A stretch of 64,000 nucleotides of DNA, from NCBI GenBank assembly GCA_031549535.1, contig JAVBPP010000024.1, positions 10,180-74,179 on the forward strand. The letters are read 5' to 3'. This stretch comes from Oscillospiraceae bacterium (GTDB taxonomy: Bacteria; Bacillota; Clostridia; Oscillospirales; Acutalibacteraceae). The position numbers and the translations under genes are program-made. The notes beneath the pieces are model-generated. The model had not been told where the DNA came from. It saw only the letters and a program-made list of their open reading frames with translations, and searched no databases. Within the stretch, counting starts at the first letter, position 1. Each line of letters starts with the position of its first letter. Shown piece after piece: positions 33,967 to 62,024 of this stretch.

Positions 33967-34100
33967 TTCGGATGATTTATGTGGCGTGTGGGTCCTGTGC
34001 GACGGGGCGCTGTGAACCATGTCAGGCGGGGAACCGAGCAGCATTAAACAGTCAGCACTGTGCGCCACAGTCTGCCTGCACGTCACATAAATCACCCGAA
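33967..34100 (+). ncRNA. ffs: signal recognition particle RNA (small bacterial SRP RNA)
   Basis: The terminal helix pairs 33967-33985 with 34082-34100. The conserved domain IV core is TGTCAGGCGGGGAACCGAGCAGC with a GGAA tetraloop. It sits in the classic Firmicutes position upstream of dnaX. Confidence 0.75.
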
Positions 34101-34116: not shown

Positions 34117-34161
34117 CAGTTTGAAAAACAATGTTTTCAAACTGAAGTTTTGTGTTTTTTT
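34117..34161 (+). terminator. terminator after ffs
   Basis: An 11-bp stem (CAGTTTGAAAA 34117-34127 pairs with TTTTCAAACTG 34134-34144), then a T-rich run ending in TTTTTTT. Confidence 0.5.
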
Positions 34162-34221
34162 GTCAAAAGGCGGATAAAAAGCTTAAAACTTCTGCCGGCT
34201 TCTGAAAGGATAGTCATCACT

Positions 34222-35865
34222 ATGTACCGCGTGCTTTACCGTAAATACCGGCCGCAGACCTTTCGCGATGTTGTCGGCCAAGCCCATGTCACCTCCACGC
34301 TGCAGCATGAGCTGGAGGCGGGCAGGCTTTCGCATGCCTATTTATTCACCGGCACACGCGGCACAGGCAAAACCACCTGCGCCAGGCTGCTTTCCCGCGC
34401 GGTAAACTGCCTCACCCCGGTGGAGGGCAACCCCTGCAATCACTGCGAAATCTGCACGGAACTGTTACAGGGCACGCTTTTGGATGTGATTGAAATTGAC
34501 GCCGCCAGCAACAGCGGCGTGGATAATATCCGTGATTTATGTGAGGAAGCGAATTTTACGCCCGTACGCGCAAAATACCGTGTGTATATTATAGATGAGG
34601 TGCACATGCTCACCACGCAGGCTTTTAACGCCCTGCTCAAAATAATGGAGGAACCGCCCGGCCATGTGATTTTTATTTTGGCCACCACTGAGGTGCATAA
34701 AATTCCGGCGACCATCCTCTCGCGCTGTCAGCGCTTTGATTTTCATCGCCTGCCCGCCCAACGCATTGCCGAGCGCCTAACAGAGGTGGCGCAACGTGAG
34801 GGCTTTGTCTTGGAGCCTCAGGCCGCGCAGCTGATAGCCCGCATTTCGGACGGTGCGCTGCGCGACGCACTTTCTCTGTTAGACCGCTGCATCTCCCAGC
34901 ATGAAACGGTTACGGCCGAAGTCGTTACCGCCTGCGCAGGGCTGACGGGGAAGGGGCATATTTTTTCACTGGCCGACAGCATTGCCGCCCGCCAAACGCA
35001 GGACGCCATCCGCAGGCTGCACAGTCTTTATGCGGACTCCTGCGACATGGAACAGCTCTGCGGTGAACTGCTTTCCCACATGCGCGATTTGATGATTATG
35101 AAAACCGTGGAACGCGCACAGGATATCTTGATTTGTACTGATACCGAATGGAAGCAGTTTCAGGAACAGGCCACGCGCTTTACCTTGGATCGTATCTTGC
35201 AATGCCTGCGTATTTTGGAAGAAACGTTGTTCTCAGTCAAGCGGGAGATGAATAAGCGTGTCCTGCTGGAGATGACACTCATCCGCCTTTGCACGCCGGA
35301 GCTGGATACGGATATCTCCGCATTAAGCGCCAGAATAAGCGCTTTAGAAGAAAAACTGCGGGACGGCATCCCCGTTACAGCGAGAATGGATTCGAAGCCT
35401 TCCGCCTCCCTTTCGGCGGAACTGCAGGAACAACCGAACAACACTCCCGAAGAAGAGGCAGAAGCCGACCCACAGGAAGAGGACGACACGCAAGAGGAAG
35501 AGGAGGAGGAAACCCCTCTCCCCGGCCAAATGGGTTTGTTTGCACAGGAGGAAACGGCTCCCGCCGGCGGAAATTTTAATTGGGAAGCGGTTTTATCCGC
35601 CCTCGCCGTTAAAAATCCTGCCCTTTACGGCCTCATTTGCGGCGTTACCGTAAGCCTGGAACAGGACGTTTGCATCATAGAAGGTTCAAATCCCAGCCTG
35701 GCGCAATTTTTAGAAATTGGCAGTAATGCACAAACGCTGCAGGACGCCATGCGTGAAAGCTGCGGCAGTGTTTACCCGGTGCAATTCCGTAACAGCCCCA
35801 AACAAGCCGCAAAAAGCAATGATCCGCTCGCGGGTTTTGCCGATAAAATTAATACATTATTCTGA
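34222..35865 (+). CDS. dnaX: DNA polymerase III subunit gamma/tau
   Basis: Track ORF starts at 34150. The ATG at 34222 gives MYRVLYRKYRPQTF. Walker A GTRGTGKTT and Zn-module Cys residues (CNHCEIC) are present. Confidence 0.95.
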   Translation: MYRVLYRKYRPQTFRDVVGQAHVTSTLQHELEAGRLSHAYLFTGTRGTGKTTCARLLSRAVNCLTPVEGNPCNHCEICTELLQGTLLDVIEIDAASNSGVDNIRDLCEEANFTPVRAKYRVYIIDEVHMLTTQAFNALLKIMEEPPGHVIFILATTEVHKIPATILSRCQRFDFHRLPAQRIAERLTEVAQREGFVLEPQAAQLIARISDGALRDALSLLDRCISQHETVTAEVVTACAGLTGKGHIFSLADSIAARQTQDAIRRLHSLYADSCDMEQLCGELLSHMRDLMIMKTVERAQDILICTDTEWKQFQEQATRFTLDRILQCLRILEETLFSVKREMNKRVLLEMTLIRLCTPELDTDISALSARISALEEKLRDGIPVTARMDSKPSASLSAELQEQPNNTPEEEAEADPQEEDDTQEEEEEETPLPGQMGLFAQEETAPAGGNFNWEAVLSALAVKNPALYGLICGVTVSLEQDVCIIEGSNPSLAQFLEIGSNAQTLQDAMRESCGSVYPVQFRNSPKQAAKSNDPLAGFADKINTLF

Positions 35866-35882: not shown

Positions 35883-36230
35883 ATGAAAGCCAGAATACCG
35901 AATGGGGGCGGCAACAGCCGTCAGGACATGCTGAAAAACCTTCAAAAAATGCAGGAAGACATGGCACGCGTGCAAGAGGAAGTGGAAAACAGCGAGTTTT
36001 CCTCTTCTGCCGGCGGCGGCGCTGTGACCGTTACGGTCAACGGCAGGCATGAAATTCTTTCCGTTCAGCTGCAACCGGAAATTGTTGACCCGGAGGATAT
36101 TGAGATGCTGCAGGATTTGCTGCTTGCCGCAGCAAATGAGAGCCTGCGCAAGGCGGGCGAAGCCATGGAAAAGGCCATGGAACCCATGCAGAACGCAATG
36201 AATATCCCGGGCATGCAGGGGCTGTTTTAA
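35883..36230 (+). CDS. ybaB: YbaB/EbfC nucleoid-associated protein
   Basis: 115 aa. The MLKNLQKMQEDMARVQEE pattern is typical. Lies in the conserved dnaX-ybaB-recR order. Confidence 0.9.
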   Translation: MKARIPNGGGNSRQDMLKNLQKMQEDMARVQEEVENSEFSSSAGGGAVTVTVNGRHEILSVQLQPEIVDPEDIEMLQDLLLAAANESLRKAGEAMEKAMEPMQNAMNIPGMQGLF

Positions 36231-36829
36231 TGGCGAACCCTGTTGCGCCGCTTGCGCGATTAATTGAACAATTCGAGCGCCTGCCCGGCATCGGCCACAA
36301 AAGCGCCCAGCGCTTAGCTTTATATTTATTAAACAGGCCTGCACAGGAACTGGAGGCCTTTGCCGAAACCCTGCTGCTTGCGCAGAAAAGCATTCGCCGC
36401 TGTACCCAGTGCTGCGATTTGACAGACAGCGAGCTGTGCCGTATTTGCGCCTCTCCCTCGCGCGACAAGAGCATGCTTTGTGTGGTGGAGGATTCACGCG
36501 ATGTGATGGCGATAGAGCGCACCCAGGAATACGCGGGGCTGTATCATGTTCTGCATGGTGTTATTTCCCCCATCAACGGTGTTAATCCGGAGGATTTGAC
36601 CATAAAAGAGTTGCTGCACCGCCTGCAGGATGAGGGCATTACTGAAATTATTATGGCCACAAACCCTACAGTGGAGGGGGAGGCCACCGCAATGTACCTT
36701 TCCCGTCTGATTAAGCCAATTGGGGTAAAAGTGACACGCCTCGCCTATGGCATCCCTGTGGGCGCCACGCTGGAATTTGCAGACGAAGTGACACTGCTGC
36801 GCGCTATTGAGGGCAGAAAAGAACTGTAG
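36230..36829 (+). CDS. recR: recombination protein RecR
   Basis: LPGIGHKSAQRLA helix-hairpin-helix, a C4 zinc finger (CTQC...CRIC) and a Toprim region. Confidence 0.95.
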   Translation: MANPVAPLARLIEQFERLPGIGHKSAQRLALYLLNRPAQELEAFAETLLLAQKSIRRCTQCCDLTDSELCRICASPSRDKSMLCVVEDSRDVMAIERTQEYAGLYHVLHGVISPINGVNPEDLTIKELLHRLQDEGITEIIMATNPTVEGEATAMYLSRLIKPIGVKVTRLAYGIPVGATLEFADEVTLLRAIEGRKEL

Positions 36830-36847
36830 TTTAATTTTTAGGAAAAG

Positions 36848-37046
36848 TTTTCCATAAAGTTGTTCTTTTTCCACCTATGGTTTTCCACAGTTTCCTTTTT
36901 CACTATTTTTCCACCGGAAAAATTCCCCATTTTTTCCCCTGTCTCTAAACAGTTTCACGCTGCTTTTTTCCAATTATGACAAGCACTTGCAGTGTTTTCC
37001 ACCGTTTCCACCGCCCCTACTACTACTACTAAATAAATCTAATACC
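36848..37046 (+). other. oriC-like module: DnaA-box cluster, GC spacer, (CTA)5 DnaA-trio-like tract and an AT-rich stretch
   Basis: Seven co-oriented TT(T/A)TCCA(C/A/T)N boxes lie at 36848, 36867, 36881 (TTTTCCACA), 36907, 36966, 36995 and 37004. They are followed by GCCCC, then CTA x5 at 37017-37031 (the bottom strand reads 3'-GAT-5' x5), then AATAAATCTAATA. Confidence 0.6.
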
Positions 37047-37108
37047 CGCTATGCAATAAGAGCGCAAACATTGCAAGAATCAGTTTTCACCGGAAAGGAT
37101 TTGACAAG

Positions 37109-38215
37109 ATGAAAATCATTTGCGACACCCAGCTTCTGTCCGAAGCCTGCCAGAATGTACAGCGTGCCGTTACACAAAAAACCACGATTCCGGCGCTGGA
37201 ATGTATTCTGTTACGCACGGGAGAAAATTCTGTTGCACTTACCGGCTATGATTTGGATGTCGGTATTCAAACCAGTATCGAAGCTAAAGTGGGGCAGGAG
37301 GGCGCGATTGCGCTGAATTCCCGCGTATTGTGCGACATTCTGCGCAAGCTGCCGGGCGATACTGTGGTAATTGAATCTGATTTTCGCTATCTTGCTAAAA
37401 TACAGAGCGCTGAGGCAGAGTATTCCCTCATCGGCATTTCACCGGAGGAGTTTCCGGAGCTTCCCAGTGTGACAGGTGGCTATCCCATCGTGCTTGCACA
37501 GGGTATTGTAAAGGAAATGGTGCGGCAAACCATTTTTGCCGTCGCGGTGAAGGATAGTAAAATTATACATACCGGCATTAAATTTGAAATTCAGGACGGG
37601 GAAATTCGCCTGGTTGCCGTAGACGGTGTGCGCCTTGCCCTGCGTAAGGAAAAAATTGAGTACGATGGGGAGGAACTCTCCTTTGTTGTGCCGTCCAAAA
37701 CGCTTTCTGAAGTGGTGAAACTCATGGATGATGATGATGCGTTTGTTTCCATGAGTGTGGGAAAAAGGCACATTGTGTTTGATATTTCCGGTTATAATGT
37801 AGTATCCCGCTTATTGGACGGAGAGTTTTTAAACTACCGCGCGAGCATTCCGCAGGTGCACGCAACAAGCGTGCAGGTGAATACTCGCCAGTTTATTGAG
37901 AGCATTGACCGCACCTCGCTGATTATCACAGATAAACTGAAGAGCCCCGTAAAATGTAATTTTTCACAGGATTCCATTTATATTTCATCCGTGACAGCCC
38001 TGGGTACCGCGAGCGATAAAATCGGCGCGCAAATCAAGGGAGACAGTGTGGAAATTGGTTTCAATAACAAGTATTTGGTGGAGGCGCTGCGTGTATGTGA
38101 CTCTGACGAGGTGCGTTTGGAATTAAACGGCCCCGTTGCGCCGATACTCATTCTTCCCGTGGAGGGCGACGACTTTCTGTTTTTGGTATTACCTGTGCGA
38201 TTGAAGGCTGATTAA
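37109..38215 (+). CDS. dnaN: DNA polymerase III beta subunit (sliding clamp)
   Basis: 368 aa. The MKIICDTQLLSEACQNVQRAV N-terminus and three-domain clamp length fit, as does synteny with yaaA-recF. Confidence 0.95.
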   Translation: MKIICDTQLLSEACQNVQRAVTQKTTIPALECILLRTGENSVALTGYDLDVGIQTSIEAKVGQEGAIALNSRVLCDILRKLPGDTVVIESDFRYLAKIQSAEAEYSLIGISPEEFPELPSVTGGYPIVLAQGIVKEMVRQTIFAVAVKDSKIIHTGIKFEIQDGEIRLVAVDGVRLALRKEKIEYDGEELSFVVPSKTLSEVVKLMDDDDAFVSMSVGKRHIVFDISGYNVVSRLLDGEFLNYRASIPQVHATSVQVNTRQFIESIDRTSLIITDKLKSPVKCNFSQDSIYISSVTALGTASDKIGAQIKGDSVEIGFNNKYLVEALRVCDSDEVRLELNGPVAPILILPVEGDDFLFLVLPVRLKAD

Positions 38216-38218
38216 GTT

Positions 38219-38488
38219 ATGGATGAAAAGAAAAAAATTAAAGTCCGTGTTGTACCGAGGCAGGAAATTCCGATTTCGATTACTACTGATTTCATTCGCT
38301 TAGATGCCTTCCTCAAGCTTTGTAATGCCGTGGAAAGCGGAGGGCATGCAAAGGAGGTCATTCAAGCGGGAGAAGTTCTGGTCAACGGAGAAGTTTGCCT
38401 GCAACGGGGCAGAAAGCTGCGCGGGAATGACCGGGCACAATTTGGAAGAGATATTTTTGTGGTAGTATATGACAATATTGGAACATGA
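38219..38488 (+). CDS. yaaA: S4-domain RNA-binding protein YaaA
   Basis: 89 aa with an S4-like fold sequence (IRLDAFLKL ... VLVNGEV). Lies in the conserved position between dnaN and recF. Confidence 0.8.
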   Translation: MDEKKKIKVRVVPRQEIPISITTDFIRLDAFLKLCNAVESGGHAKEVIQAGEVLVNGEVCLQRGRKLRGNDRAQFGRDIFVVVYDNIGT

Positions 38489-39560
38489 AATCAACCACTT
38501 TCGCAATATAACACACATCCGTTTTTGTCCGGAGAGCGGCATTAACATGCTCTACGGTAGCAACGGGCAGGGAAAAACAAATATATTGGAAAGCCTTTGG
38601 CTGTATACCGGCTGCCACAGTTTTCGCACAAAAAAAACTGCGGAGCTGATTCAGCAGGGCGCGCGTTTTGCCCAAACCTCGCTGCGTTTTTTCGCGGCGG
38701 AGCGGGAGCAGGACGCGCAAATGAAACTGCACCAAAAGCGTGAGGTGCTGCTTAACGGCGTTGCCAAGGCCAGCCCCCGGCAACTGCTTGGCGAGGTTCA
38801 GGCAGTTGTTTTTTCGCCGGAGGTGCTGAGTATTGTGAAAGAAGGTCCCGCGCAGCGCAGGCGCTTTTTGGATGTGGCAATCAGTGTTGTTCGGCCGCAA
38901 TATGCCCATATTTTAGCAAAATACGGTAAGGCGTTGGATCAGCGTAATAACCTGCTGCGGCAGATTGCGCAGGGTAAAACGAAGGAAGAGTATCTGGAAC
39001 CTTGGGATGAGGAGCTTTCGCTCCTTGGAGCGAGGATAATAGAATACCGTAGGAACTATATCACACCCCTTACTCTCGCCTGTGAAAGTGTCTATGCCAA
39101 AATAACGCAGGGGAAGGAAGCACTCTCTCTTTCTTATCTGTGCAGCGCTGCGCAGGAAGTAACGGACCGGGCGGAGCTGGCCGCCGTGCTGTTTGGCTTG
39201 ATGTGGGAGAACAGAGCCTTGGATATCAGGCGGCTTTATACAACGGCAGGTATTCATAAAGAGGACTTAGAGCTGTTGATAGATGGGAGCCCCGCACGGG
39301 CTTTCGGATCCCAGGGGCAGCAGCGTTCCTGTGCGCTGGCGTTAAAAATTGCGGAGGCACAAATGCTTTTTGCCCTCTCCGGTGAAAAGCCTGTAGTTTT
39401 GTTGGACGATGTGATGAGTGAGCTGGATGAAAACCGCCAGCGGGATTTGCTGCTCTGCTTAGAGGATTGGCAGGTGTTTGTCACCTGCTGTGAACCGTCC
39501 CAGGTATTGCGGCAGAAAACCGCAAAGGCATTTGTGGTCAATCAAGGGAATTTGGTATAA
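38469..39560 (+). CDS. recF: DNA replication/repair protein RecF
   Basis: Walker A GSNGQGKTN, signature-like GSQGQQRS and Walker B VLLLDDVMSELD. Confidence 0.92.
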   Translation: MTILEHEINHFRNITHIRFCPESGINMLYGSNGQGKTNILESLWLYTGCHSFRTKKTAELIQQGARFAQTSLRFFAAEREQDAQMKLHQKREVLLNGVAKASPRQLLGEVQAVVFSPEVLSIVKEGPAQRRRFLDVAISVVRPQYAHILAKYGKALDQRNNLLRQIAQGKTKEEYLEPWDEELSLLGARIIEYRRNYITPLTLACESVYAKITQGKEALSLSYLCSAAQEVTDRAELAAVLFGLMWENRALDIRRLYTTAGIHKEDLELLIDGSPARAFGSQGQQRSCALALKIAEAQMLFALSGEKPVVLLDDVMSELDENRQRDLLLCLEDWQVFVTCCEPSQVLRQKTAKAFVVNQGNLV

Positions 39561-39575
39561 GGATGGGGGAAGCGC

Positions 39576-39836
39576 ATGTATCTGTATCTCGGGCAGGAAA
39601 CCATTATTCCTCAGGAAGAAATCATAGGCGTATTTGACTTGGACACCACCACGGTCTCAAAAGTGAGCAGGGACTTTTTGCGTTTTGCCCAGCAGGCGGG
39701 GGAAGTCATCAACGTCAGTATGGAATTGCCGAAATCCTTTATTCTGCGCGGGGATAACAAAAAAAGGCAGGTGTATATTTCCCAGATATCCACCACAACG
39801 CTGCTGAAGCGCATGGATTACCTGTCCGGCCTGTAA
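39576..39836 (+). CDS. remB: DUF370 / RemB-like small protein
   Basis: 86 aa in the conserved position between recF and gyrB. Resembles the RemA/RemB family. Confidence 0.65.
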   Translation: MYLYLGQETIIPQEEIIGVFDLDTTTVSKVSRDFLRFAQQAGEVINVSMELPKSFILRGDNKKRQVYISQISTTTLLKRMDYLSGL

Positions 39837-42259: not shown

Positions 42260-44245
<1,986 letters not shown>

Positions 44246-44266: not shown

Positions 44267-46825
44267 TTGGCTTTTAACGACGAAACGCTGGACATGCAAA
44301 AAATAATACCCGTGGATATCGACAAGGAGATGAAAAAATCCTTTTTGGATTATTCCATGTCGGTTATCATGGCGCGTGCGCTGCCCGATGTGCGGGACGG
44401 CTTAAAACCCGTTCACCGGCGTATTTTATACACCATGTATGAAAATAATTTGTATCCGGATAAGGCTTACCGCAAGTGCGCGGATACGGTGGGTTCGGTT
44501 TTGGGCCGCTACCACCCGCATGGCGACGCCTCTGTGTATGACGCCATGGTGCGCTTGGCGCAGGATTTTTCCATGCGCTATATGCTTGTGGACGGCCACG
44601 GCAACTTTGGCTCCGTAGACGGTGACCCGCCTGCGGCCTACCGTTACACCGAGTCCCGCATGAGCAAAATTTCGCTGGAGCTGCTGACGGATATCGACAA
44701 GGAGACCGTTGATTTCGCGCCGAACTACGATGACCGCCTGCAGGAGCCGACGGTGCTGCCCTCGCGTTACCCGAATCTGTTAGTGAACGGCTCCTCCGGC
44801 ATCGCCGTGGGTATGGCGACCAATATTCCGCCGCACAACATGAACGAGGTTGTGAACGGCATGTCCTGCCTCATTGATAACCCGGAGGCCTCCTTAGAGG
44901 AGCTGATGGAGCATATCAAGGGGCCCGACTTTCCCACAGCCGGTATTATTATGGGCAAGGCGGGTATCCGCGCGGCCTATGGCACCGGGCGGGGGCGCAT
45001 CACCCTACGCGCACGGGCAGAAATTGTGGAAGAAAAGGGCGACCGCTTTAAAATTATCGTCACGGAGCTGCCCTATCAGGTCAACAAGGCCAAGCTAATT
45101 GAATCGATTGCGGAACTGGTGAAGGAAAAGCGCATAGAGGGCATTGCCGACGTTAACGACTATTCCTCCCGCGAGGGGATGCAAATTGAGGTCAAGCTTA
45201 AGCGCGACGCAAACCCCCAGGTGGTATTAAACCAGCTCTATAGCTTTACCCAGTTGCAAACGACGTTCGGCGTTATCATGCTTGCCCTTGTGAATGGGGA
45301 GCCGAAAATCCTGACGCTTAAGGAGATGCTACAGCATTACATTCAATTCCAGTGCGAAATTGTAACCCGCCGCACGCAGCATGATTTGCGCAAGGCGAAG
45401 GAACGCGCCCATATTTTAGCGGGCTTGCTCATCGCGCTGGATTATATTGATGAAGTGATTGCGATTTTACGCGCGTCCAAATCCATTCCGGAGGGCAAGG
45501 AGGCGCTGATTACGCGCTTTGGCCTGGATGATGTGCAGGCGCAGGCCATTGTACAAATGCGCCTTGGTCAGCTCACGGGCATGGAACGCGAGAAGATAGA
45601 GGAAGAAATGCAGCGCCTGGAAACGCTGATTGCGGACTTGGAGGATATCCTGGGCGACAGCGCACGCGTGCTTGCCATCGTTAAGGAGGAGACCGCCGCC
45701 ATCGGTAAAAAATACCACGATGAGCGCCGCACGGAAATTGTCAATATCACGGGCGAAATGGATATTGAGGATTTGATTCCCGAGGAAACCTGCGTCTTTA
45801 CCCTGACAAACATGGGGTATATCAAACGCATGCCCATGGATACCTATCAGACGCAGCGGCGCGGCGGGCGCGGCATTATCGGCATGAGCCGCCGCGAAGA
45901 GGATGTTGCCCAAACGATGTTTTCCTGCTCCACGCATGAGTATGTGATGTTCTTCACCACGCGCGGCAGGGCGTACCGCCTGAAGGGCTACGAAATCCCC
46001 GAGGGCTCCCGCACAAGCAAGGGTATGAACATTGTGAATCTCCTGCCCATTGAGGCAGATGAAAAGGTCTCCGCGATGATTCGCGTGCCGGCCTATGAGG
46101 GCGGGCAATATCTGTGCATGGTTACGCGCAAGGGCATCATCAAGCGCACGGAGCTGGAACTGTATAAAAACGTCCGGAAAAACGGCGTAATTGCCATTAA
46201 TCTGGACGATGACGACGAGCTGGCCTGGGTGCGCCTGACCAGCGGCGGGGATGAACTGATTGTTGCCACCCGGCGCGGTATGGCCATCCGCTTCGCGGAA
46301 TCCGGCGCGCGCTGCGTGGGCAGAACCGCACGCGGTGTGAAGGCGCTGACACTGCGCCCCGGCGACGAGGTTGTGGGCATGGTGGTTGTGGATGAGGAAA
46401 AAAGCGTCCTCACTTTGAGCGAAACCGGCTACGGCAGGCGCAGCAAGCCCGGCGATTTCCGCTGCCAATCCCGCGGCGGCAAGGGGCTCATCAACTATAA
46501 GACCGCCCTGTACGGCGATGTGGCCGCGGTCTGCGTGGTAGATGAAACAGATGATTTGATTCTGATTTCCTCAGACGGCATTATCATCCGCATACCCGTG
46601 GAGCAAATCAGCACCTTCGCAAGGCCCTCCAAGGGTGTGCGCGTGATGCGCGTGACCCAGGGGGAGCGCCTGGTGACGGTGGTGGCCGCTGAGCATGACG
46701 AAGAGGCGGAGGAGACCGACGCCCTGCCCGAGCAAAGCCCCGAGGATGTGCAGGAGGCCGGAAAGGACGCGGGGGATATCGCGGAGGATGAAGCGGAGGA
46801 AACGGCGGAATCCGTAGAAGAATAG
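44267..46825 (+). CDS. gyrA: DNA gyrase subunit A
   Basis: Canonical motifs [20 protein letters not shown], the QRDR-region [10 protein letters not shown] and the catalytic AAYRYTE. Acidic C-terminal tail. The start is TTG at 44267 or ATG at 44294. Confidence 0.97.
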
Positions 46826-47594: not shown

Positions 47595-48170
47595 CTATAA
47601 AACACGCGGGGAGGGATAGGCCTTTGGCTCCAGTTGCCAGATTGCGGTATAGCCAGAGCGCATGTCCGGAGAGCCTGTGACTTTCTCTTGCACCAGCACA
47701 ACGTGCAGGTTATAGTCCTCCAGCTCAGCGCTGCCGGTGTAGACGTGAATCTTATTTGAGGTTTTATCGAATACCAGCGTGTCTTTTATGCTGTCCTTTT
47801 CAATATTACTCCGGCACTTAACAGTAGTTAATTTTGCGGGTCGAAATGCTTGGATGTATGGAATTTTGACACGCAAAATTTTTACTACTGTTGGTGCAGG
47901 TGTAATAGCATCCTTGTGGACGACCAGATGCTTGGCGTTGTCCAGCAGCCAGCGGTGCAGGGGAACATCATCTTCCAGCTGAATCCCGAGTTCGTTTGAT
48001 AGCGCATCCACGTCCTTCTGTGGCAATTCAAGGATAAACCAAGGTGTAATCGTGTTTGCCAGAGCGAAATATTGCAGATGTCTTTGTGCGCTGCGTAATG
48101 CCGCGCAGCTTGCCGCGACGAATGCAAGGCAGAGAATTGCGATGAGGCTAAGCAGATACTTGCGTTTCAT
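47595..48170 (-). CDS. putative lipoprotein, function unknown
   Basis: An AAGGAG RBS lies 8 nt upstream. The signal peptide MKRKYLLSLIAILCLAFVAASC has a lipobox-like AASC. The gene is lower in GC than its surroundings. Confidence 0.6.
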   Translation of the reverse strand: MKRKYLLSLIAILCLAFVAASCAALRSAQRHLQYFALANTITPWFILELPQKDVDALSNELGIQLEDDVPLHRWLLDNAKHLVVHKDAITPAPTVVKILRVKIPYIQAFRPAKLTTVKCRSNIEKDSIKDTLVFDKTSNKIHVYTGSAELEDYNLHVVLVQEKVTGSPDMRSGYTAIWQLEPKAYPSPRVL

Positions 48171-48208
48171 GGGCGACGTCTCCTTTTTTCATCATCGTAT
48201 CAGTGTGC

Positions 48209-48385
48209 GTCCGATGACGGTTCCCTGTGGCAAACGGCATCCACCGAGAACGACGGTGCGCCCGGTGTGCGCACCCTACGGCGATATGCCCCGCAAATTC
48301 TGCAGATGCCGTCCGGGCAGCCAATCCTGGCCTCCCTCGCCGAGGGAGGTGTCCCCGCAGGGACGCAGGGAGTCCCCGGGGTGCT
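48209..48385 (+). repeat. RF-C GC-rich mosaic palindromic element (single unit)
   Basis: Contains, in order, the modules CCGATG-N-CGGCATCC, GGTGCGCCCGGTGTGCGCACC (48255-48275), CCTCCCTCGCCGAGGGAGG and GTCCCCGCAGGGAC, as in the arrays at 50.9 kb and 55 kb. Confidence 0.8.
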
Positions 48386-48414
48386 CACTGTGGAAAACGA
48401 GTGGGCGTCCCAAG

Positions 48415-48449
48415 TTTTTTATCTACGCTTTCTTTGGATATTGGTATTA
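48415..48449 (-). repeat. right copy of the perfect 35-bp inverted repeat
   Basis: Exact reverse complement of 47060-47094. It overlaps the last ~10 codons and the stop of the P-type ATPase gene. Confidence 0.9.
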
Positions 48450-50395
48450 GGCTTGGCGTAGCGCCCCAACAGCCGCGAGGCGTTGAGCACCGTTACCAGC
48501 AGCACGCCCACATCGGCGAACACGGCGGCGGAGATTGGCGCAAGGCCGCACAATTCCAGCAGCAGGATGGCACCTTTGACGAGCAGGCAGAAGACGATAT
48601 TGCTGTTGACAATGCGCATGGTGCGGCGGCAGATGATTTGTGCGTCCGCCAGGCGGGCGAGGTTGGAGCCAACCAAAATGATATCCGCCGCTTCGCTTGC
48701 GGCCTGGGTGCCAAGCCCCATGGCAACGCCCGCGTCCGCCGCCGCCAGAACCGGGGCATCGTTGATGCCGTCGCCCACAAAAACAACGCTGCCTTCTTGT
48801 TTCATCTGCTCCACGAAGCGCAGCTTTTCCTCCGGCAGCAGACCGGCACGGTAAGTATCCATCCCCAGTTCCTGCGCTAAGGGAAAAGCCTGGCTTTCGC
48901 TGTCGCCCGTGAGCATCACCAGCTGTTTGGCGGCGCCTTTGCCGCTGCGCAGGCGCTGGAAAAGGCTGTGCACCTGCGGACGCAGCTCGCCCGTAAATGC
49001 GATTGCGCCCAAGGCTTTTCCGTCCGCTGCGAGGTAAACGGCGCTTTCCGGCAGGGCGGAAACATCAATTTGCTGCGCCTGCATGAGGCGCAAGCCGCCG
49101 CAGAGAAGCTGCTGCCCTTGATACACGGCCATTGTGCCGCCGCCGGGCATTTCTGAAAAATTCGAAAGCTGTGCGGGGTCAATTGATGTGCGTGGCAGGC
49201 TTTGCGTTGCGTGGGTGACAATTGCTTTCGCGAGGGGATGTGTGCTGTGTGTTTCACAGGCCGCCGCGAGCAGCAACAGGGTATCCGGGGAAATGCCCGG
49301 TGCGGGGGTCAGCTCGGAAACGCTCATTTCGCCCGTGGTAAGTGTTCCGGTTTTATCAAAAGCAAAGTGCCTTGCCTTGGCCAGATTTTCTAAAAAGATG
49401 CCGCCTTTGATGATAATGCCCTGCTTGGCCGCTGCGCCCATTCCGGCAAAAAAACTCAAGGGAACGCTCAACACCAGCGCACAGGGGCAGCTCGCCACCA
49501 AAAAACCCAGCGCACGCCGCAGCCATTCCTGCCAATCTCCTGTAATCAGGGAGGGAATCACGAATAGCAACACCGCCAAAACCACAACGGTGGGTGTGTA
49601 CACTCGCGCAAAGCGAGTAATTTTTTTATGGGCGCTGCCCTTGCGCTCCACGGCGTCCTCCACCATGCGAATGATACGCGCGGCGGCGGAGTCTGTTACG
49701 GTGGAACTCACCCGCACCACAAGTGTGCCGTCCGCGTTCATCATTCCGCTGGAAACACGTTCGCCGGGCACAGCCCCCACGGGTAGGGATTCGCCTGTCA
49801 GCGCGGCGGCGTCCAGACTGGAGCTGCCGCGCAGGATAACGCCGTCCAGCGGGACACGCTCATGCGGAAGAATGACAATTTCACTTGCGACGGCAATTTC
49901 CGCCGCCGCAACGGTTTGCATCTTGCCGTCCGCCAAGAGAAGATGTGCGGTGTCCGGCTGGAGGTCGGAGAGGGAGCGTATCATATTGCGGCTGCGCCGG
50001 GAGGCATAGTCTTCAAACGCCTCCCCAATGCGGAAAAACAGCGTTACCGCCGCGCCCTCCGCAAACTCGCCCATGCCGAAGGCCGCAAGGGAGGCGATGG
50101 ACATCAGCAGCGTTTCATCCATCTCCCCGTGGCGCAGAGTTTTGTAGCCTTGTATCACAACAGGGTAGCCGGAAATCAAGGCCGAAAGGGCAAATAGAAT
50201 TGCCTTCGGCCAGCCCTCTATCATGGGCAGGAACGCAAGCGCGAGCAGCAGCGCGGAAATACCCATCTCCCAAAGGCCGCGCGCTGTCCCTTTTTCCGCA
50301 TCGGCATGCGCATGTTTATGGCCGCAGCCGCAAAGGGACTCCGGCTGGGCTTGCACCCCGCAGTTGCAGTTTTTTTCGTTATAACACTCTGACAT
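48419..50395 (-). CDS. heavy-metal translocating P1B-type ATPase (Zn/Cd/Co-type)
   Basis: CPC transmembrane motif (ASCPCALV), DKTGTLT phosphorylation site, GDGINDAP hinge and a Cys/His-rich N-terminus. Confidence 0.92.
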   Translation of the reverse strand: MSECYNEKNCNCGVQAQPESLCGCGHKHAHADAEKGTARGLWEMGISALLLALAFLPMIEGWPKAILFALSALISGYPVVIQGYKTLRHGEMDETLLMSIASLAAFGMGEFAEGAAVTLFFRIGEAFEDYASRRSRNMIRSLSDLQPDTAHLLLADGKMQTVAAAEIAVASEIVILPHERVPLDGVILRGSSSLDAAALTGESLPVGAVPGERVSSGMMNADGTLVVRVSSTVTDSAAARIIRMVEDAVERKGSAHKKITRFARVYTPTVVVLAVLLFVIPSLITGDWQEWLRRALGFLVASCPCALVLSVPLSFFAGMGAAAKQGIIIKGGIFLENLAKARHFAFDKTGTLTTGEMSVSELTPAPGISPDTLLLLAAACETHSTHPLAKAIVTHATQSLPRTSIDPAQLSNFSEMPGGGTMAVYQGQQLLCGGLRLMQAQQIDVSALPESAVYLAADGKALGAIAFTGELRPQVHSLFQRLRSGKGAAKQLVMLTGDSESQAFPLAQELGMDTYRAGLLPEEKLRFVEQMKQEGSVVFVGDGINDAPVLAAADAGVAMGLGTQAASEAADIILVGSNLARLADAQIICRRTMRIVNSNIVFCLLVKGAILLLELCGLAPISAAVFADVGVLLVTVLNASRLLGRYAKPNTNIQRKRR

Positions 50396-50404
50396 GACAA
50401 TTCC

Positions 50405-50815
50405 TCACTTCTTTACGCCAATTTCGCGCAGGTGGGATAGGCCGGTTTCAATAATTTCTTTGACGTGGTCGTCGTCCAGCGCGTAAAAAATTGTTTTGCC
50501 GCTGCGGGTCGGGCGCACAAGACCGCTCGTGCGTAGAATACGCAGTTGGTGCGAGACCGCGCTTTGCCCCATTTCCAGCTGCTGTGCAATATGCTGCACG
50601 CACATTTCCCCCTGCATCAAGGCGGTTAAAATGCGGATACGCGTAGAATCTCCAAACACCTTAAACAGTTCGGAAAGGTCATACAGGGTTTCAATGTCGG
50701 GCTGTTCAGCCGCGTGGAGCAGGCAACAATCCTCCGCCGTACAAGGGGGTTGGGTATGCTTATGTTCTTCCATAGGTATCACATCCGACGCATAATCATA
50801 TGAGCAATTGTTCAT
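50405..50815 (-). CDS. ArsR/SmtB family metalloregulatory repressor
   Basis: Winged-helix core FKVFGDSTRIRILTAL ... CVQHIAQQLEMGQSAVSHQLRIL with N-terminal Cys residues. Lies directly upstream of the ATPase. Confidence 0.9.
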   Translation of the reverse strand: MNNCSYDYASDVIPMEEHKHTQPPCTAEDCCLLHAAEQPDIETLYDLSELFKVFGDSTRIRILTALMQGEMCVQHIAQQLEMGQSAVSHQLRILRTSGLVRPTRSGKTIFYALDDDHVKEIIETGLSHLREIGVKK

Positions 50816-50818
50816 ATG
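50797..50818. promoter_or_regulatory. candidate ArsR/SmtB operator (22-bp imperfect palindrome)
   Basis: CATATGAGCAA paired with TTGTTCATATG gives 10 of 11 matching positions. It spans the arsR start codon, just downstream of the predicted -10. Confidence 0.5.
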
Positions 50819-50826
50819 TTGCCTTT

Positions 50827-50855
50827 AGTATAAGCCGCTGATGCGGCTTTGTCAA
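50827..50855 (-). promoter_or_regulatory. sigma-70-like promoter of the arsR-ATPase operon
   Basis: On the minus strand: TTGACA (50850-50855), a 17-nt spacer, then TATACT (50827-50832). Confidence 0.55.
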
Positions 50856-50900
50856 GAGATTTTTAAATAAATAAAGAATTGGGCATTGCAAAACGACCGA

Positions 50901-51383
50901 AACGGCAGGCGGCCAAGGCCGGCCTCCCTCGCCGCGGGAGCTGTCCCCGCAGGGACGGAGGGGGTCGTCAGCGTTCCGATGCCGATCGCCTGCAGCAGAC
51001 GGCATCCAAAGGGAACGACGGTGCGCCCGGGTGTGCGCACCCTACACGATATGCCCCGCAAATTCCGCCGATGTTGTTTAGGCAGCCAATCCCCGCCTCC
51101 CTCGCCGAGGGAGCTGTCCCCGCAGGGACGGAGGGGGTCGTCAGCGTAGCTCCACCGGGTAAAAAGCGGACGACGCCCACGTCGTCCCGATGCCGGTTCT
51201 CTCCGGCAGAGGGCATCCAAAGGGAACGTCGGTGCGCCCGGGTGTGCGCACCCTACACGATATGCCCCGCGATTTTCGCCGCTCCGTCCGGATTGCCTGG
51301 TAGATGCCGGTTCCCTGTTGCAAATGGCTTCCACCGGGAACGGCGGGTGACCGGGGACGCGCCCCTACAACATATGCCCACAG
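50901..51383 (+). repeat. RF-C GC-rich mosaic palindromic repeat array (about 3-4 units, one degenerate)
   Basis: Module GGTGCGCCCGGGTGTGCGCACC occurs at 51020-51041 and 51231-51252. CCTCCCTCGCCG(A/C)GGGAG plus CTGTCCCCGCAGGGACGGAGGGGGTCGTCAGCG occurs twice. A diverged unit lies at 51301-51383. Confidence 0.85.
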
Positions 51384-51500
51384 TGAAAGGATGGCCTACG
51401 ACATGTAGGGGCAAATGCGCGTCCAGTACTTTCGCAAGCTCCTGTAAAGCTTGGTATAATACGTATGGTATAAGGCGGGCGTAACAAAAGCGTTTTATAT

Positions 51501-53294
51501 TCACGCAAGGATATTGCCCGTGTCCTCCGTGGGGATAACGTCATTTGGCGGCAAGGTGGGGGTATCGCTTGGCGGCGGCAGGGTGGTCGGCGGGGGCAGA
51601 GTGGTTGGCGGTTCTGTTGGTGCCGCGTCCCAGACGCGAATGGTGAGCTTGGTGCCTTTGCTGTATTTTTTCCCGGCGGTGAGGTTCATGTCCTTCACAA
51701 CGCCCTCTGTTTTTGATCCGTCGTTAGCCACTTTAATCAGATCGTAGTCAAAACCGAGCTTATCAAAGTTGGCTTTTTGGTCTGAAAATTTCTTGCCGGT
51801 CAAATCCGGAAGCTCCACAAGCTCTTTGCCGTTGCTGATGGTTAACACAATTTCGGTGCCCTGCGCAACCCGTTTGCCCGGTTCAATACTTTGCTTTATG
51901 ATGTAGTTGCTTTCCACCGTGTCACTGTAAACGTATACTTCTTTAAAGCTAAAGCGGCTCTGCAAAATCGGATCTTCCAAAACGGAAATATAGGTGCGAT
52001 CGTTGGTGAGGTTTGGCACTTCCAACAATTCGCCCTGTGCCTGGGTTACCTGGCCGGGACTGGTTGTTGTTTCTGCCACGCCGAACAAATCGTCCTTAAA
52101 AACCGTTAACGCCAGTGCCGCAAAAATCACAAGGCCAGCGCCAAGGCTGATGAGCATGGCTTTGATGATGGTGCTGCGCTGCGAATTACTCTTTTTCTCT
52201 ATTGTCGCCGGGCGCGGCCGGGGAGCTGCCGCAGTTGCAGCAGGCCTGGCGTTGGGTTGCCCTGCGCTGCTTTGCCGTGCTGCCTGCTCCAGATAGGCTG
52301 CGCCGGCTACCGAAGCGCTTGGGGAGGCGGAAAGCTCCGCGCGCAGGATATCCACGGTACGCGTGCGGTCCTCCGGCCGAATCTGCATGGCGTTCACCAG
52401 CGCGTGTATCACGTAGGCGGGTACCTGCTCCGCGACCTGGCCGGGCACCATGAGCCTGTCGTTCGTCACGCGTAGGGAGGCGTCAATCGGGTCACTGCCG
52501 GTGAGGGAGCGGTATAACACGCCCGCGAAGGCGTAAATATCCGTCCAGCTCCCCTGCTGCCCCTCAAAGCCATATTGCTCGATTGCGGAATAACCGGGGA
52601 ACAGCTGGGCGTTCAAATCACCGCGCGCCGTCCGCGCCTGCCAAATGCTGAAGCCGGAGAGCCAGACCTTGCCGTCCTGGCTCACAAGCAGGGTGGTGGG
52701 GGAGATGCCGCGATGAATGATTCCGGCGGAATGCAATGTCCCAATGGCGGAAAGCACGGGCATTAAAAGCTGCCGCGCACGCTCCCAGCTGAGGGTGCCG
52801 GTTTTGCTTTTAATGAGCAAATATTCCCGAAGGGTGTTGCCGCTGATATGTTCATAAACCGCGTAGGAGCTGTTATTCTCCTCCAAAATATCCGTTACAC
52901 TGATGAGGGAGGACAGGCCACGCAGGCGCGCGAGCTTCTGCCAAAGCTCTAAAAAACTTTGGCGGCATTCCTCAAAGGTGCGCTCACAGCCGGGCATCAC
53001 GCTTAAAAACGCGCTGTCCTGGCTGCGCTGGGCAATCGAATCCGGGAAAAACTCACGGATGCAAACGGCAATGCGCCGGTTGAGATCCCAGCCAATGTAA
53101 GTGATGCCCTCTCCGTTTTGCTCCAGGGCTTTGCCGAACAAATAGCGGTTGGCTATCACATAACGCACGGGTAAATAGGCGGCGGGCTGCGCAGCTCCAA
53201 CGGCATAACCGCAATGCGGGCACTGTTTGAGCTCCCCGATTTCCCGCATGCAGCTCATGCAAAGATGGTCGGTGTTAATCATAATATTCGGCAC
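51501..53294 (-). CDS. membrane Ser/Thr-kinase-like protein with an N-terminal zinc ribbon and two extracellular PASTA domains; predicted pseudokinase
   Basis: Zinc ribbon CMSC-x10-CPHC. A kinase fold is recognisable (WTDIYAFAGVLYRSLTG), but the motifs are HRGISPTT instead of HRDxKxxN, SGFS instead of DFG, and AVCIRE instead of VAIK. TM helix AMLISLGAGLVIFAALALTVF. Two PASTA-like repeats follow. Confidence 0.8.
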   Translation of the reverse strand: MPNIMINTDHLCMSCMREIGELKQCPHCGYAVGAAQPAAYLPVRYVIANRYLFGKALEQNGEGITYIGWDLNRRIAVCIREFFPDSIAQRSQDSAFLSVMPGCERTFEECRQSFLELWQKLARLRGLSSLISVTDILEENNSSYAVYEHISGNTLREYLLIKSKTGTLSWERARQLLMPVLSAIGTLHSAGIIHRGISPTTLLVSQDGKVWLSGFSIWQARTARGDLNAQLFPGYSAIEQYGFEGQQGSWTDIYAFAGVLYRSLTGSDPIDASLRVTNDRLMVPGQVAEQVPAYVIHALVNAMQIRPEDRTRTVDILRAELSASPSASVAGAAYLEQAARQSSAGQPNARPAATAAAPRPRPATIEKKSNSQRSTIIKAMLISLGAGLVIFAALALTVFKDDLFGVAETTTSPGQVTQAQGELLEVPNLTNDRTYISVLEDPILQSRFSFKEVYVYSDTVESNYIIKQSIEPGKRVAQGTEIVLTISNGKELVELPDLTGKKFSDQKANFDKLGFDYDLIKVANDGSKTEGVVKDMNLTAGKKYSKGTKLTIRVWDAAPTEPPTTLPPPTTLPPPSDTPTLPPNDVIPTEDTGNILA

Positions 53295-53410
53295 TCCTAG
53301 TTATTGTTGCACTTTAAACTGTGACATACAAAATAGATGCAAGTATCGTACCAAAGTTCCCGAAAAAAGTCAATTACAGGATTGTTACCGCAATTTTCCA
53401 ACGATGCATG

Positions 53411-54676
53411 CTATTCATCTTTTATATTCTTCCAATACGCCGCAAAAGTCTGCTCTGTTTTATTCTTACCCGGCTCATAATAGCGGGTGCCCAGCAGATT
53501 GTCGGGTAAATACTGCTGCTTGACCCAGTTGTTTGCATAGTCATGCGCATAGAGGTAGTGCTGCCCCTTTTGCGCGGCGTCCTCGCCGTCAAAATGTTTA
53601 TTTTGCAGGCTGCGCGGGATGGAGCCTGTTTTCCCCGCCTGCACATCCGCGCGGGCTTTGGCAATGGCGCTCACGCCGGAATTGGATTTCGGCGCAGTGC
53701 AAACCAAAATCACGGCATCCGCCAAAGGAATCTGCGCCTCGGGCAGGCCAACCATCAAGGCAATATCCGCCGCGGCCTTGACGATGGGGATAATCTGCGG
53801 ATAAGCAAGGCCGACGTCCTCGCAGGCGGTCACAACCAGTCGCCGGATGGCGCTGGGCAGGTCGCCCGCCTCCAACAGCCGCGCAAGGTAATGCAGCGCC
53901 GCGTCCGTGTCGGAGCCGCGCATGGATTTTTGATAGGCGGAGAGAATGTCGTAATGCTCATCCCCCTCGCGGTCATAGCGCAAAGCGCTTTTTTGGGTGA
54001 GCTGCTTTGCACATTCCAGCGTAACAACGCGCACACCGTTTTCCGGCGGGGAAGAGAGCACGCAAAGCTCGGCGGCGTTCATTGCCTTGCGTACGTCGCC
54101 GGAACAACCCTGCGCAATGTAAGCGCACACGCCATCCTCACAAGTAATTTGTTCCCCGTGTTCTGTTTCCATAAACGCAAATGCGCGTTCCACTGCGGGA
54201 ATTAAATCCTCCGCCGTGACGGATTTAAACTCAAACACGGTGGAACGGCTTAAAATGGCGCTGTAGACATAAAAATAGGGATTTTCCGTGGTGGAGGCAA
54301 TCAGCGTAATCGTGCCGTTCTCAATAAACTCCAACAGGGTCTGCTGTTGCTTTTTATTAAAATACTGAATCTCATCCAGATACAACAAGATTCCGTTGGG
54401 TGCAAGAAAAGTATCCAGCTTGGCAACCGCGTCTTTGATGTCCTGCGTGCCCGCCGTGGTGCCGTTGAGCTTCACGAGCAGGCGGTCGGTTTTCTGCGCA
54501 ATAATGCCCGCTAGCGTGGTTTTCCCGATGCCGGGCGGGCCGTAGAACACGAGGTTCGGCAGCGTTCCGGAGTTGATAATATTGTATAACGGCTTCCCCG
54601 GGGCAAGCAAATGCCGCTGCCCGACGATATCCTCCAGCGTCTTCGGACGAAGGCGTTCCGCAAGCGGTGCAGACAT
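53411..54676 (-). CDS. rarA: replication-associated recombination protein A (AAA+ ATPase)
   Basis: N-terminus LAERLRPKTLEDIVGQ, Walker A GPPGIGKTT, Walker B LYLDEIQ and the MgsA C-terminal region. Confidence 0.93.
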   Translation of the reverse strand: MSAPLAERLRPKTLEDIVGQRHLLAPGKPLYNIINSGTLPNLVFYGPPGIGKTTLAGIIAQKTDRLLVKLNGTTAGTQDIKDAVAKLDTFLAPNGILLYLDEIQYFNKKQQQTLLEFIENGTITLIASTTENPYFYVYSAILSRSTVFEFKSVTAEDLIPAVERAFAFMETEHGEQITCEDGVCAYIAQGCSGDVRKAMNAAELCVLSSPPENGVRVVTLECAKQLTQKSALRYDREGDEHYDILSAYQKSMRGSDTDAALHYLARLLEAGDLPSAIRRLVVTACEDVGLAYPQIIPIVKAAADIALMVGLPEAQIPLADAVILVCTAPKSNSGVSAIAKARADVQAGKTGSIPRSLQNKHFDGEDAAQKGQHYLYAHDYANNWVKQQYLPDNLLGTRYYEPGKNKTEQTFAAYWKNIKDE

Positions 54677-54931
54677 GGCGAACCCTCCTTGAGTTGACTT
54701 CTCTGGTGTATAGTACTGATTATTTTGGAACTAAAAATCCACAGAATAACGGTACAGAGGTTTTTATGGTACGCTTATATATTGGTAAAGGAACTATTTT
54801 TTCAGCTGAGCTTGCGCAGGCGCGATCCGATGCGCAGGCTTTCGCTTTCCTGTATTTTTATTGATGCGAAAGCGCCTCATAAAAATAATCAGATGGCTAA
54901 AGTGAAAACTTTAGCCGCTTTTTGATTTGTA

Positions 54932-55305
54932 GGGAACGATGCCCTCATCGTTCCGATGCCGCTTCCCTGCAGCAAACGGCATCCAAAGGGAACGGCGGTG
55001 CGCCCGGTGTGCGCACCCTACACGATATATGCCATAAATTCTGCCGACGCCGTTAGGCAGCCAATCCCCGCCTCCCTCTCCGAGGGAGGCGTCAGCGTCC
55101 CGATGCCGCTTCCCTGCAGCAGACGGCATTCAAAGGGAACGGCGGTGCGCCCGGTGTGCGCACCCTACACGATATGCCCCGCAAATTCCGCCGATGTCGT
55201 TTAGTCCGCCAATCCCCGCTCCCTCCCCGAGGGAGCTGTCCCCGCAGGGACGGAGGGAGTCGTCAGCGTTCCGATGCCGCTTCCCTCGGGCAAACGGCAT
55301 CCAAG
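54932..55305 (+). repeat. RF-C GC-rich mosaic palindromic repeat array (2 full units plus a partial unit)
   Basis: Units of about 147 bp (54950-55096) and 171 bp (55097-55267), then a partial third unit. Module GGTGCGCCCGGTGTGCGCACC occurs at 54997-55017 and 55144-55164. Confidence 0.85.
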
Positions 55306-55451
55306 TGCGGATAAAAACCGAAAAAGCAGAGCCATTCCGGAACGGCTTGGCTTTGCTTTAGAGGGTATGCTCCGGGACGGAGAATGCCTGTACGGCGTAT
55401 ATTTTGATTGCGCAGTATATGCAATACTCAAGCGGAATTGGCATAATTAGT

Positions 55452-56603: not shown

Positions 56604-56616
56604 AGCCGCCCCCTTC

Positions 56617-56988
56617 TTATAAGACGGCCAGCACTTCATCCGTGCTGACGGTCTGCCCTTTTTGCACCAAAATTTGCTTGACGGTGCCGTCCTGTGGGGC
56701 AACAATTTCGTTTTCCATCTTCATCGCCTCGAGGATGAGCAACACATCGCCGGCTTTCACCACATCACCGGCCTGTTTGTGCACAGCCAGAATCGCGCCG
56801 GGCATGGGCGCGGTGACCTGCAATCCGGCCTGTGCGGATGCGGGTGCGGGAGCTGCCGCCTGCACGGGGGCGGCAACGGGTGCAGATGCGGGTGCAACAG
56901 GCGCGGCAGTGACATTCGCAATCACCGCGCTGCTTTGTTCCACTTCCACCTCATACTGTTTTCCGTTTAATGTCACGATATATTTCAT
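56617..56988 (-). CDS. biotin carboxyl carrier (biotinyl domain) subunit
   Basis: Biotinylation motif [10 protein letters not shown] and an Ala/Pro-rich linker. Confidence 0.85.
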
Positions 56989-57002
56989 GTTGTTATCCTT
57001 TC

Positions 57003-57347: not shown

Positions 57348-57358
57348 ACAAAACCCTC

Positions 57359-58738: not shown

Positions 58739-58752
58739 AGGATTATACCCCC

Positions 58753-60135: not shown

Positions 60136-60173
60136 ATGCCGAAACTCCCCTTATTTTATACAGATTAGCTTTT

Positions 60174-60202
60174 AGTATATGCTGAATATGGTGAAAAGTC
60201 AA
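60174..60202 (-). promoter_or_regulatory. sigma-70-like promoter upstream of glyQS
   Basis: On the minus strand: TTGACT (60197-60202), a 17-nt spacer, then TATACT (60174-60179). Confidence 0.4.
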
Positions 60203-60234
60203 GGATGCCGCCGCCTTTTTCGTGCGGATTGGTA

Positions 60235-61293: not shown

Positions 61294-61342
61294 ATTGCTT
61301 GCTCCTTCTTATTCTTTAAGTTTGCGAGTTAAAGGAAAGTGA

Positions 61343-61946: not shown

Positions 61947-62024
61947 TTTATCAAATCCTTACTCGAAAAATATGTTTTTTGGGAGACTTTAACTTGCTTT
62001 GCACCAATTTCAAAATATGTTCCC

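Follow-up and report, generated by a model that had tools for sequence, protein, structure and literature searches.

A probable chromosome replication origin between recR and dnaN, apart from dnaA, in an uncultured clade of Acutalibacteraceae

The 279 bp between recR and dnaN (positions 36830-37108) are very probably where chromosome replication starts in this gut bacterium, and the one departure from the usual Firmicute arrangement is that dnaA is no longer next to this site. We hold with high confidence that the spacer is the chromosomal oriC, a basal unwinding system (BUS) of the incC/oriC2 type left at dnaN when an ancestral rearrangement separated dnaA from it. What has been observed is the anatomy of the spacer, its uniqueness in the genome, its conservation in the family, the location of dnaA elsewhere and the coincidence of a GC-skew switch with the spacer in two related genomes; from there we infer DnaA binding, unwinding, read-through transcription and firing from the spacer in the organism's own genome.

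An rpmH-dnaA-dnaN origin context is commonly regarded as invariable in Firmicutes, and dnaA is used as the origin marker in automated origin calling, in genome start-point conventions and in peak-to-trough growth-rate estimates from metagenomes. No account of a recR-oriC-dnaN layout in a Firmicute turned up in a literature search. The window considered here is the whole stretch of 64,000 nucleotides that was analysed, C81:10180-74179 of the source genome (G000), and lies on a contig of 76 kb. The genome is metagenome-assembled (2.56 Mb, 125 contigs, 94% complete, 3.3% contamination), and the relatives with which it is compared come from its family, the Acutalibacteraceae, sampled across 150 genera, and its order, the Oscillospirales.

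Anatomy of the recR-dnaN spacer

All elements of the module are laid out along the + strand. Nine co-oriented DnaA-box-like 9-mers within two mismatches of TTTTCCACA are found in the spacer, five of them within one mismatch; an earlier, sequence-only reading of this DNA had their co-orientation and coordinates right and undercounted them as seven. Seven of the nine make up a distal array (36848..36974, + strand), comprising TTTTCCATA at 36848 and TTTTCCACC at 36867 (one mismatch each), TTTTCCACA itself at 36881, TTTTTCACT at 36896 (two mismatches), TTTTCCACC again at 36907 (one), and TTTTCCCCT at 36932 and TTTTCCAAT at 36966 (two each). The box at 36881 is the only perfect match to TTTTCCACA among the nine. 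The remaining two, a third TTTTCCACC at 36995 (one mismatch) and GTTTCCACC at 37004 (two), form a tandem, trio-proximal pair on the + strand (36995..37012) which is the counterpart of boxes 6/7 of B. subtilis and which relatives have as the same pair in the same position.

The pair is followed by a GC spacer, GCCC (37013..37016, + strand), and here the earlier reading was right about the element and wrote GCCCC by taking in the first C of the first triplet, a trivial difference. Then come five DnaA-trios (37017..37031), CTA five times on the top strand and 3'-GAT-5' five times on the bottom strand where they are read, conserved in relatives and with AT-rich sequence next to them, exactly as had been described. 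This short AT-rich stretch, AAATAAATCTAATA (37032..37045, no strand assigned), is presumed from a nearest-neighbour stability scan to be the unwinding element together with the trios; it is only ~14 bp long in this genome, and that of the relatives is longer. By the same scan the least stable 30-bp duplex of the interval 36400-37500 starts at 37015 and belongs to the top 0.19% of the 64-kb window. The ribosome-binding site of dnaN, GGAAAGGA (37092..37099, + strand), can be read off the sequence ~60 bp past the AT stretch.

Published rules for finding a BUS require a box with at most two mismatches to TTATCCACA, or else a tandem pair with at most two and at most four (Pelliciari et al. 2021, PMC8287927). 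Against TTATCCACA the TTTTCCACC box at 36995 has two mismatches and the GTTTCCACC box at 37004 has three. The rules further allow a gap of 0-16 bp from the first located box to the first trio (most often 13 bp), and they call for three or more consecutive trios centred on adenine with the consensus 3'-GAT-5' and for an adjoining AT-rich and easily melted region (PMC8287927). In the spacer 13 bp separate the upstream box from the first trio and 4 bp (the GCCC) separate the proximal one from it, the five bottom-strand trios at 37017-37031 are all perfect 3'-GAT-5', and the low-stability window from 37015 takes in the AT stretch of ~14 bp. By every one of these sequence criteria the module is an incC/oriC2-type BUS, and the earlier proposal that it fits the published DnaA-trio pattern is upheld on the same grounds.

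Genes around the spacer

Rfam and Pfam bear out the order ffs-dnaX-ybaB-recR, with recR directly upstream of the spacer, that had been proposed from the sequence. The gene for the small SRP RNA, ffs (33986..34084, + strand; Rfam RF00169, 60.7 bits), heads the run and is followed by dnaX for the clamp-loader tau/gamma (34150..35865, +; Pfam DNA_pol3_delta2 and DNA_pol3_gamma3), by ybaB/ebfC for a nucleoid-associated protein (35883..36230, +; Pfam YbaB_DNA_bd, 7.6e-32) and by recR (36230..36829, +; Pfam RecR_HhH, RecR_ZnF, Toprim_4 and RecR_C), which by synteny holds the place taken by dnaA in canonical relatives. On the other side of the spacer stand dnaN for the beta clamp (37109..38215, +; three DNA_pol3_beta Pfam domains) and the conserved origin-proximal block of yaaA (S4 domain), recF and a remB-like gene (38219..39836, +; Pfam). 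The minus-strand ypeB (Pfam) lies between the remB-like gene and gyrB (42281-44245, +; Pfam), and a DUF7674 gene (Pfam) between ypeB and gyrB; gyrA (44267-46825, +), an 852-aa ORF, was called from its position and size only.

A scan of the spacer predicts neither a + strand terminator after recR nor a consensus promoter, and so dnaN is probably transcribed by read-through from dnaX-ybaB-recR, as it is from dnaA in canonical relatives. That gene strand does not flip at the module had been pointed out earlier and is correct; the same is seen in relatives whose skew does switch at the module, and the reason is that dnaX-ybaB-recR just upstream point towards the origin. For ~16 kb right after gyrA (window 47595-63413) the genes are mostly on the minus strand and the GC skew is zero to negative, unlike an undisturbed right replichore, which suggests a later inversion or other local rearrangement of this block.

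The module within the genome

Across the assembly the recR-dnaN spacer is the top 200-bp window for DnaA boxes, with five at no more than one mismatch where the genome averages ~0.16. Runs of three or more CTA are found six times in the 2.56 Mb, both strands counted; the (CTA)5 of the spacer is the single occurrence of that length in the assembly and the only run of three or more that adjoins a box. Over the whole window (1-64000), TTTTCCACA-like 9-mers with at most one mismatch number 51 as against 19.6 +/- 4.0 in dinucleotide shuffles, an enrichment of 2.6-fold.

Two further box clusters are present in the genome outside the window. At C32:20493-20645 there are four DnaA boxes, of which three are perfect copies of TTTTCCACA and three are in tandem, and the ORF downstream of them has an N-terminus that resembles MraZ (MPKFTGSYQHALDQKNRLFIPAKLREK...), suggesting that DnaA may control the division and cell-wall gene cluster there. 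The other, at C13:28866-28895, consists of three tandem perfect minus-strand boxes (TGTGGAAAACCCTGTGGAAAATGTGGAAAA), lies upstream of an ORF of 1073 aa and is probably a titration or regulatory cluster. Neither trios nor an AT element were found at these two clusters, and both were rejected as alternative origins on that account, the C32 cluster being also at the mraZ promoter; to judge from their sequences they look like regulatory or titration sites.

Conservation and synteny among relatives

In about 25 relatives from the family and the order that have the canonical rpmH<-dnaA-dnaN arrangement the same module lies 50-210 bp upstream of dnaN. The parts that relatives have in common are the box pair, the GC spacer, CTA-type trios and the AT stretch, as in one canonical relative that reads TTTTCAACAATTTCAACA-CCCC-CTACTACTACTACTA-AATATATATTT. 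The comparison of synteny that the earlier reading had recommended places the module upstream of dnaN in all parts of the family, whether the gene on its far side is dnaA or recR, and the recR-dnaN spacer is by that synteny homologous to the incC/oriC2-type spacer of the family relatives. In many members of the family the dominant DnaA-box variant throughout the origin (upstream of dnaN) is TTTTCAACA, with A for C at position 6.

Within the family sample dnaA and dnaN do not share a contig in G000, G018, G134, G149, G101, G160 and G081, and the same is seen in a few more distant genomes. All seven of these sampled split genera have the order dnaX-ybaB-recR-[module]-dnaN, and ftsY comes after dnaA in each of the six whose dnaA locus extends far enough. 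In four relatives ftsY is directly after dnaA and in two more it is ~4 kb further on, with dnaN next in none of them; rpmH is still beside dnaA in three, namely G018, G101 and G160. Of the 80 species with the closest DnaN, 45 are recR-type and 27 dnaA-type, the remaining 8 being cut by contig ends; the at least 45 recR-type species have DnaN proteins that are only 55-66% identical. A rule-based scan for unwinding modules, modelled on the published BUS program, gives a hit in 54 of the 72 dnaN-upstream regions (33/45 recR-type and 21/27 dnaA-type) and in 0 of 1232 control windows. In the recR-type regions that fail the scan the module is visible by eye in 12 out of 12, with boxes that are more divergent.

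In a DnaN tree the recR-type genomes fall into two pure groups that arise from an unresolved node, a topology that is compatible with one or two origins of the recR-oriC-dnaN layout. Since it is common to at least 45 species-level relatives the separation of dnaA from the origin is not an assembly artefact, and by the same comparisons it is old, inherited and under selection.

Two genomes outside this pattern may be recorded. In G036, of the same order and another family, these genes are rearranged in another way: dnaA begins 26 bp after dnaX-ybaB-recR, and dnaN-yaaA-recF is on another contig behind a box cluster of its own and a degenerate trio-like stretch (loci L043 1282-5293 and L044 7557-8648). 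In G020, a one-contig family member of 1.3 Mb that is 93% complete and has dnaN at 992 kb, no DnaA match at E<=1e-60 was found, and its dnaA may be very divergent or absent.

GC skew at the module

Per-gene GC skew was fitted as a gene-strand effect plus a step, with the position of the step scanned and p obtained by permutation. In a canonical control, G066 (160 kb analysed), the changepoint at 128,896 falls inside the dnaA-dnaN spacer (R +0.067, variance gain 49%, 0 of 200 permutations). In the recR-type G167 (489 kb, JAZQJF010000024.1), where the spacer is at 249.6-249.8 kb, the changepoint is at 248.3-251.1 kb (R +0.034, gain 24%, p<0.01, 327 genes); the cumulative skew traces a V whose lowest point is at 240-250 kb, and dnaA is on another contig, more than ~190 kb from the module.

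The recR-type G168 (238 kb, JAXJTD010000106.1) has both genes on one contig and one strand, dnaA at 88.6 kb and dnaN at 213.4 kb, 124 kb apart, and hence its dnaA points towards the origin. Skew is negative all the way between 18 and 208 kb, dnaA included, with no switch at that gene, and reaches its minimum at ~204-210 kb. The changepoint at 211.8 kb is inside dnaX, ~1.3 kb left of the spacer at 213.1-213.4 kb (R +0.027, gain 6.7%, p=0.015), and with a low-GC island at the contig start left out p drops below 0.005. This island, the first 18 kb, has 31-38% GC and skew of the opposite sign. The gyrB of this genome (117031-118965) is outside the dnaN-recF block, 95 kb away and on the opposite strand.

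The GC-skew test which the sequence-only reading had offered against itself was thus run on two relatives with long enough contigs and came out for the module, the organism's own contig giving no significant result; the view that this looks like a functional oriC gains support from a switch that in G167 and G168 is at recR-dnaN and not at dnaA. On the own 76-kb contig of G000 (spacer 36.8-37.1 kb) the step is of the right sign, small and not significant, with its changepoint at 35.6 kb and a local optimum at 35.5-36.4 kb (R +0.014, or +0.011 at the spacer; gain <5%, p 0.58). More than ten contigs of this assembly have significant skew switches of both signs, and therefore its skew is too scrambled to nominate any locus. 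On a 124-kb contig of G134 a single-changepoint model picks a negative switch at 61 kb, and the binned skew rises at the module and reverses 24 kb further on, where G+C also changes. The own-contig result, the scrambled skew and the G134 reversal are counted against the origin reading, as are the minus-strand genes at 47.6-63.4 kb, the short AT stretch and the single perfect box, beside the three perfect tandem boxes that C32 and C13 each have, there without trios.

It might also be argued that the spacer is a relic or a regulatory site, a box cluster that controls dnaN transcription or titrates DnaA, with replication starting at some unassembled or unrecognised locus. Such a reading is unlikely. 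It can appeal to the lack of significance of the own-contig switch, to an assembly in 125 contigs and 94% complete in which another origin could be hidden, and to the non-origin clusters that this genome has on C32, ahead of mraZ, and on C13, each with three perfect tandem boxes. Non-origin DnaA-box clusters are exemplified by the six DBCs of B. subtilis and by DnaA-regulated promoters, and the spacer resembles them in having several co-oriented intergenic boxes upstream of a gene. However, a cluster of this class would have boxes only and lie away from the skew switch, whereas the spacer has trios and a low-stability element in addition. The GC spacer, the perfect trios and the low-stability stretch are not known as needs of such clusters, and C32 and C13 are without them. 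A relic would have decayed, yet at least 45 species, with DnaN proteins only 55-66% identical, have retained the module, and in G167 and G168 the skew switches at it.

Location of dnaA and rpmH

A search of the window's 76-kb contig found no dnaA. A complete dnaA (441 aa, with domains I, III and IV by Pfam) is on the 7.7-kb contig C34 in the order dnaA-ftsY-Ham1/rdgB-yhbY-smpB, and must be at least 47 kb left or at least 29 kb right of dnaN. The ribosomal gene rpmH is on a third contig (C20:5499-7460) and adjoins neither dnaA nor a box cluster; its divergent neighbour there is an unrelated ORF of 517 aa with a high content of Pro, Glu and Ala. G018, G101 and G160 retain the rpmH-dnaA pair, and in G000 these two genes have been separated in their turn. 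These placements, with the same split in at least 45 species-level relatives, confirm the earlier claim that the initiator gene is separated from the module. The last 150 nt of C34 (7592-7741), from ~70 bp upstream of dnaA, are a dispersed repeat with 97-100% identical copies on C96, C35 and C27. This repeat is probably why the contig ends there, and it may be the sign of a mobile or MITE-like element next to dnaA.

In the bipartite oriC of Firmicutes dnaA stands between two box regions in the context rpmH-dnaA-dnaN, an arrangement that G000 does not have, and at least three boxes are expected upstream of dnaA. Only 216 bp of sequence upstream of dnaA are assembled in G000, and these hold one box, with one mismatch, ~110 bp upstream of the gene. 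The second box cluster beside dnaA for which a search had been advised was found neither in these 216 bp nor in the rpmH-dnaA spacers of the split-clade G018, G101 and G160, in which no box with at most one mismatch occurs. In canonical relatives the rpmH-dnaA spacer has 1-6 boxes at that threshold, typically as a convergent pair at the dnaA promoter. To go by the rpmH-dnaA spacers of the split-clade genomes, a rival box cluster at dnaA seems to be absent.

This bears on whether the spacer could be one half of a split two-part origin, whose second box region, the equivalent of oriC1, would be near dnaA or elsewhere and be looped in trans. The origins of B. subtilis, H. pylori and C. difficile are described as bipartite and as flanking dnaA (PMC7561715), and the single box ~110 bp upstream of dnaA in G000 could be taken as a trace of such a region. 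Even so the reading is highly improbable, as the rpmH-dnaA spacers of the split clade are devoid of such boxes (the G000 sequence covers 216 bp), as even the canonical ones have only 1-6, and as a distance between dnaA and module of 124 kb in G168 and of more than ~190 kb in G167 is far for a looped complex. That recR and dnaN were joined by an error of assembly or binning and dnaA is truly beside dnaN, as a fragmented assembly with 3.3% contamination and a dnaA contig ending in a repeat might lead one to suppose, is scarcely credible when 45 species genomes, assembled independently and in different studies, have the same junction, when ftsY and not dnaN comes after dnaA in relatives and when the two genes are 124 kb apart on a single contig of G168.

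How the split arose

In 11 of 12 canonical relatives smpB is directly after recR, and in the split clade it is downstream of dnaA-ftsY-rdgB-yhbY. Because of this it appears that two adjacencies, dnaA with oriC and recR with smpB, were exchanged for recR with oriC and for dnaA with, at some genes' remove, smpB. A single inversion between the dnaA/oriC and recR/smpB junctions was considered and rejected as the whole story, dnaA and dnaN of G168 being on the same strand 124 kb apart; it is also at odds with the presence of ftsY-rdgB-yhbY between dnaA and smpB. The gene orders point instead to at least two events, or to an excision followed by reinsertion.

Comparison with known origins and a possible mechanism

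The recR-dnaN module agrees with incC of B. subtilis and oriC2 of C. difficile in the order, orientation and spacing of its elements, from tandem boxes through a GC spacer of 4 bp and 3'-GAT-5' trios to an AT stretch, with dnaN immediately downstream. The oriC2 of C. difficile unwinds in vitro and has the layout ...CAC-CTACTACTATTACTACTA, which is also that of the module, and the trios are nearly identical to the C. difficile CACCTACTACTATTACTACTA (PMC7561715). Unlike those two systems the module has recR upstream, a dnaA without an oriC1-type cluster and a shorter AT stretch. By analogy with B. subtilis and C. difficile (PMC8287927, PMC6669920, PMC7561715), DnaA would be supplied in trans from the dnaA-ftsY locus and would engage the co-oriented boxes through its domain IV, above all the tandem pair at 36995-37012. 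From this pair an oligomer of DnaA-ATP may be expected to extend across the GCCC onto the five bottom-strand 3'-GAT-5' trios at 37017-37031 and to stretch that strand, whereupon the adjoining low-stability AT stretch would open and could serve for helicase loading.

An origin beside dnaN with dnaA elsewhere and with the box TTTTCCACA is found in cyanobacteria, for example in S. elongatus PCC 7942 and Anabaena PCC 7120, and translocation of dnaA from an ancestral dnaA-dnaN origin has been proposed as the explanation (PMC4009838). The spacer studied here is likewise a box cluster with the motif TTTTCCACA that is linked to dnaN and unlinked from dnaA. Unlike the cyanobacterial case it belongs to an unrelated phylum (Bacillota, Oscillospirales), and sister lineages within the family still have the ancestral canonical arrangement, so that the event can be dated within it. 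With a dnaN-linked and dnaA-unlinked origin already known in cyanobacteria, and with the mechanism being the known one, the addition of a Firmicute member is an incremental gain.

The E. coli oriC, between gidA and mioC and ~42 kb from dnaA, has an R1 box, a GC-rich spacer and a trio-like DUE; it also has 13-mer repeats, is controlled by IHF, Fis and SeqA, and is not beside dnaN. The module resembles it in that the initiator gene is unlinked and in the polarity of box, GC-rich spacer and trio-like DUE, and differs from it in its flanking genes and in adjoining dnaN.

Implications

A broader proposal, rather evenly balanced and inclining slightly to doubt, is that the incC-type module of this Acutalibacteraceae clade serves as a fully self-sufficient one-part origin and does without oriC1, with dnaA acting in trans from more than 100 kb off, the relocated dnaA promoter being free of flanking boxes and the read-through from dnaX-ybaB-recR replacing that from dnaA into the origin. 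If so, the autoregulation of dnaA would have been lost or rewired, given a relocated promoter without flanking DnaA boxes, and the clade would be a natural counterpart of the minimal-origin experiments engineered in B. subtilis.

The origin reading itself means that in a clade of uncultured gut and rumen Acutalibacteraceae, represented by at least 45 species-level genomes, replication would start at dnaN with dnaA 100 kb or more away. In recR-type genomes the marker for the origin would then be dnaN or, better, the box-trio module, and the clade offers a natural test of whether a box pair and a DnaA-trio system are the sufficient core of a Firmicute origin.
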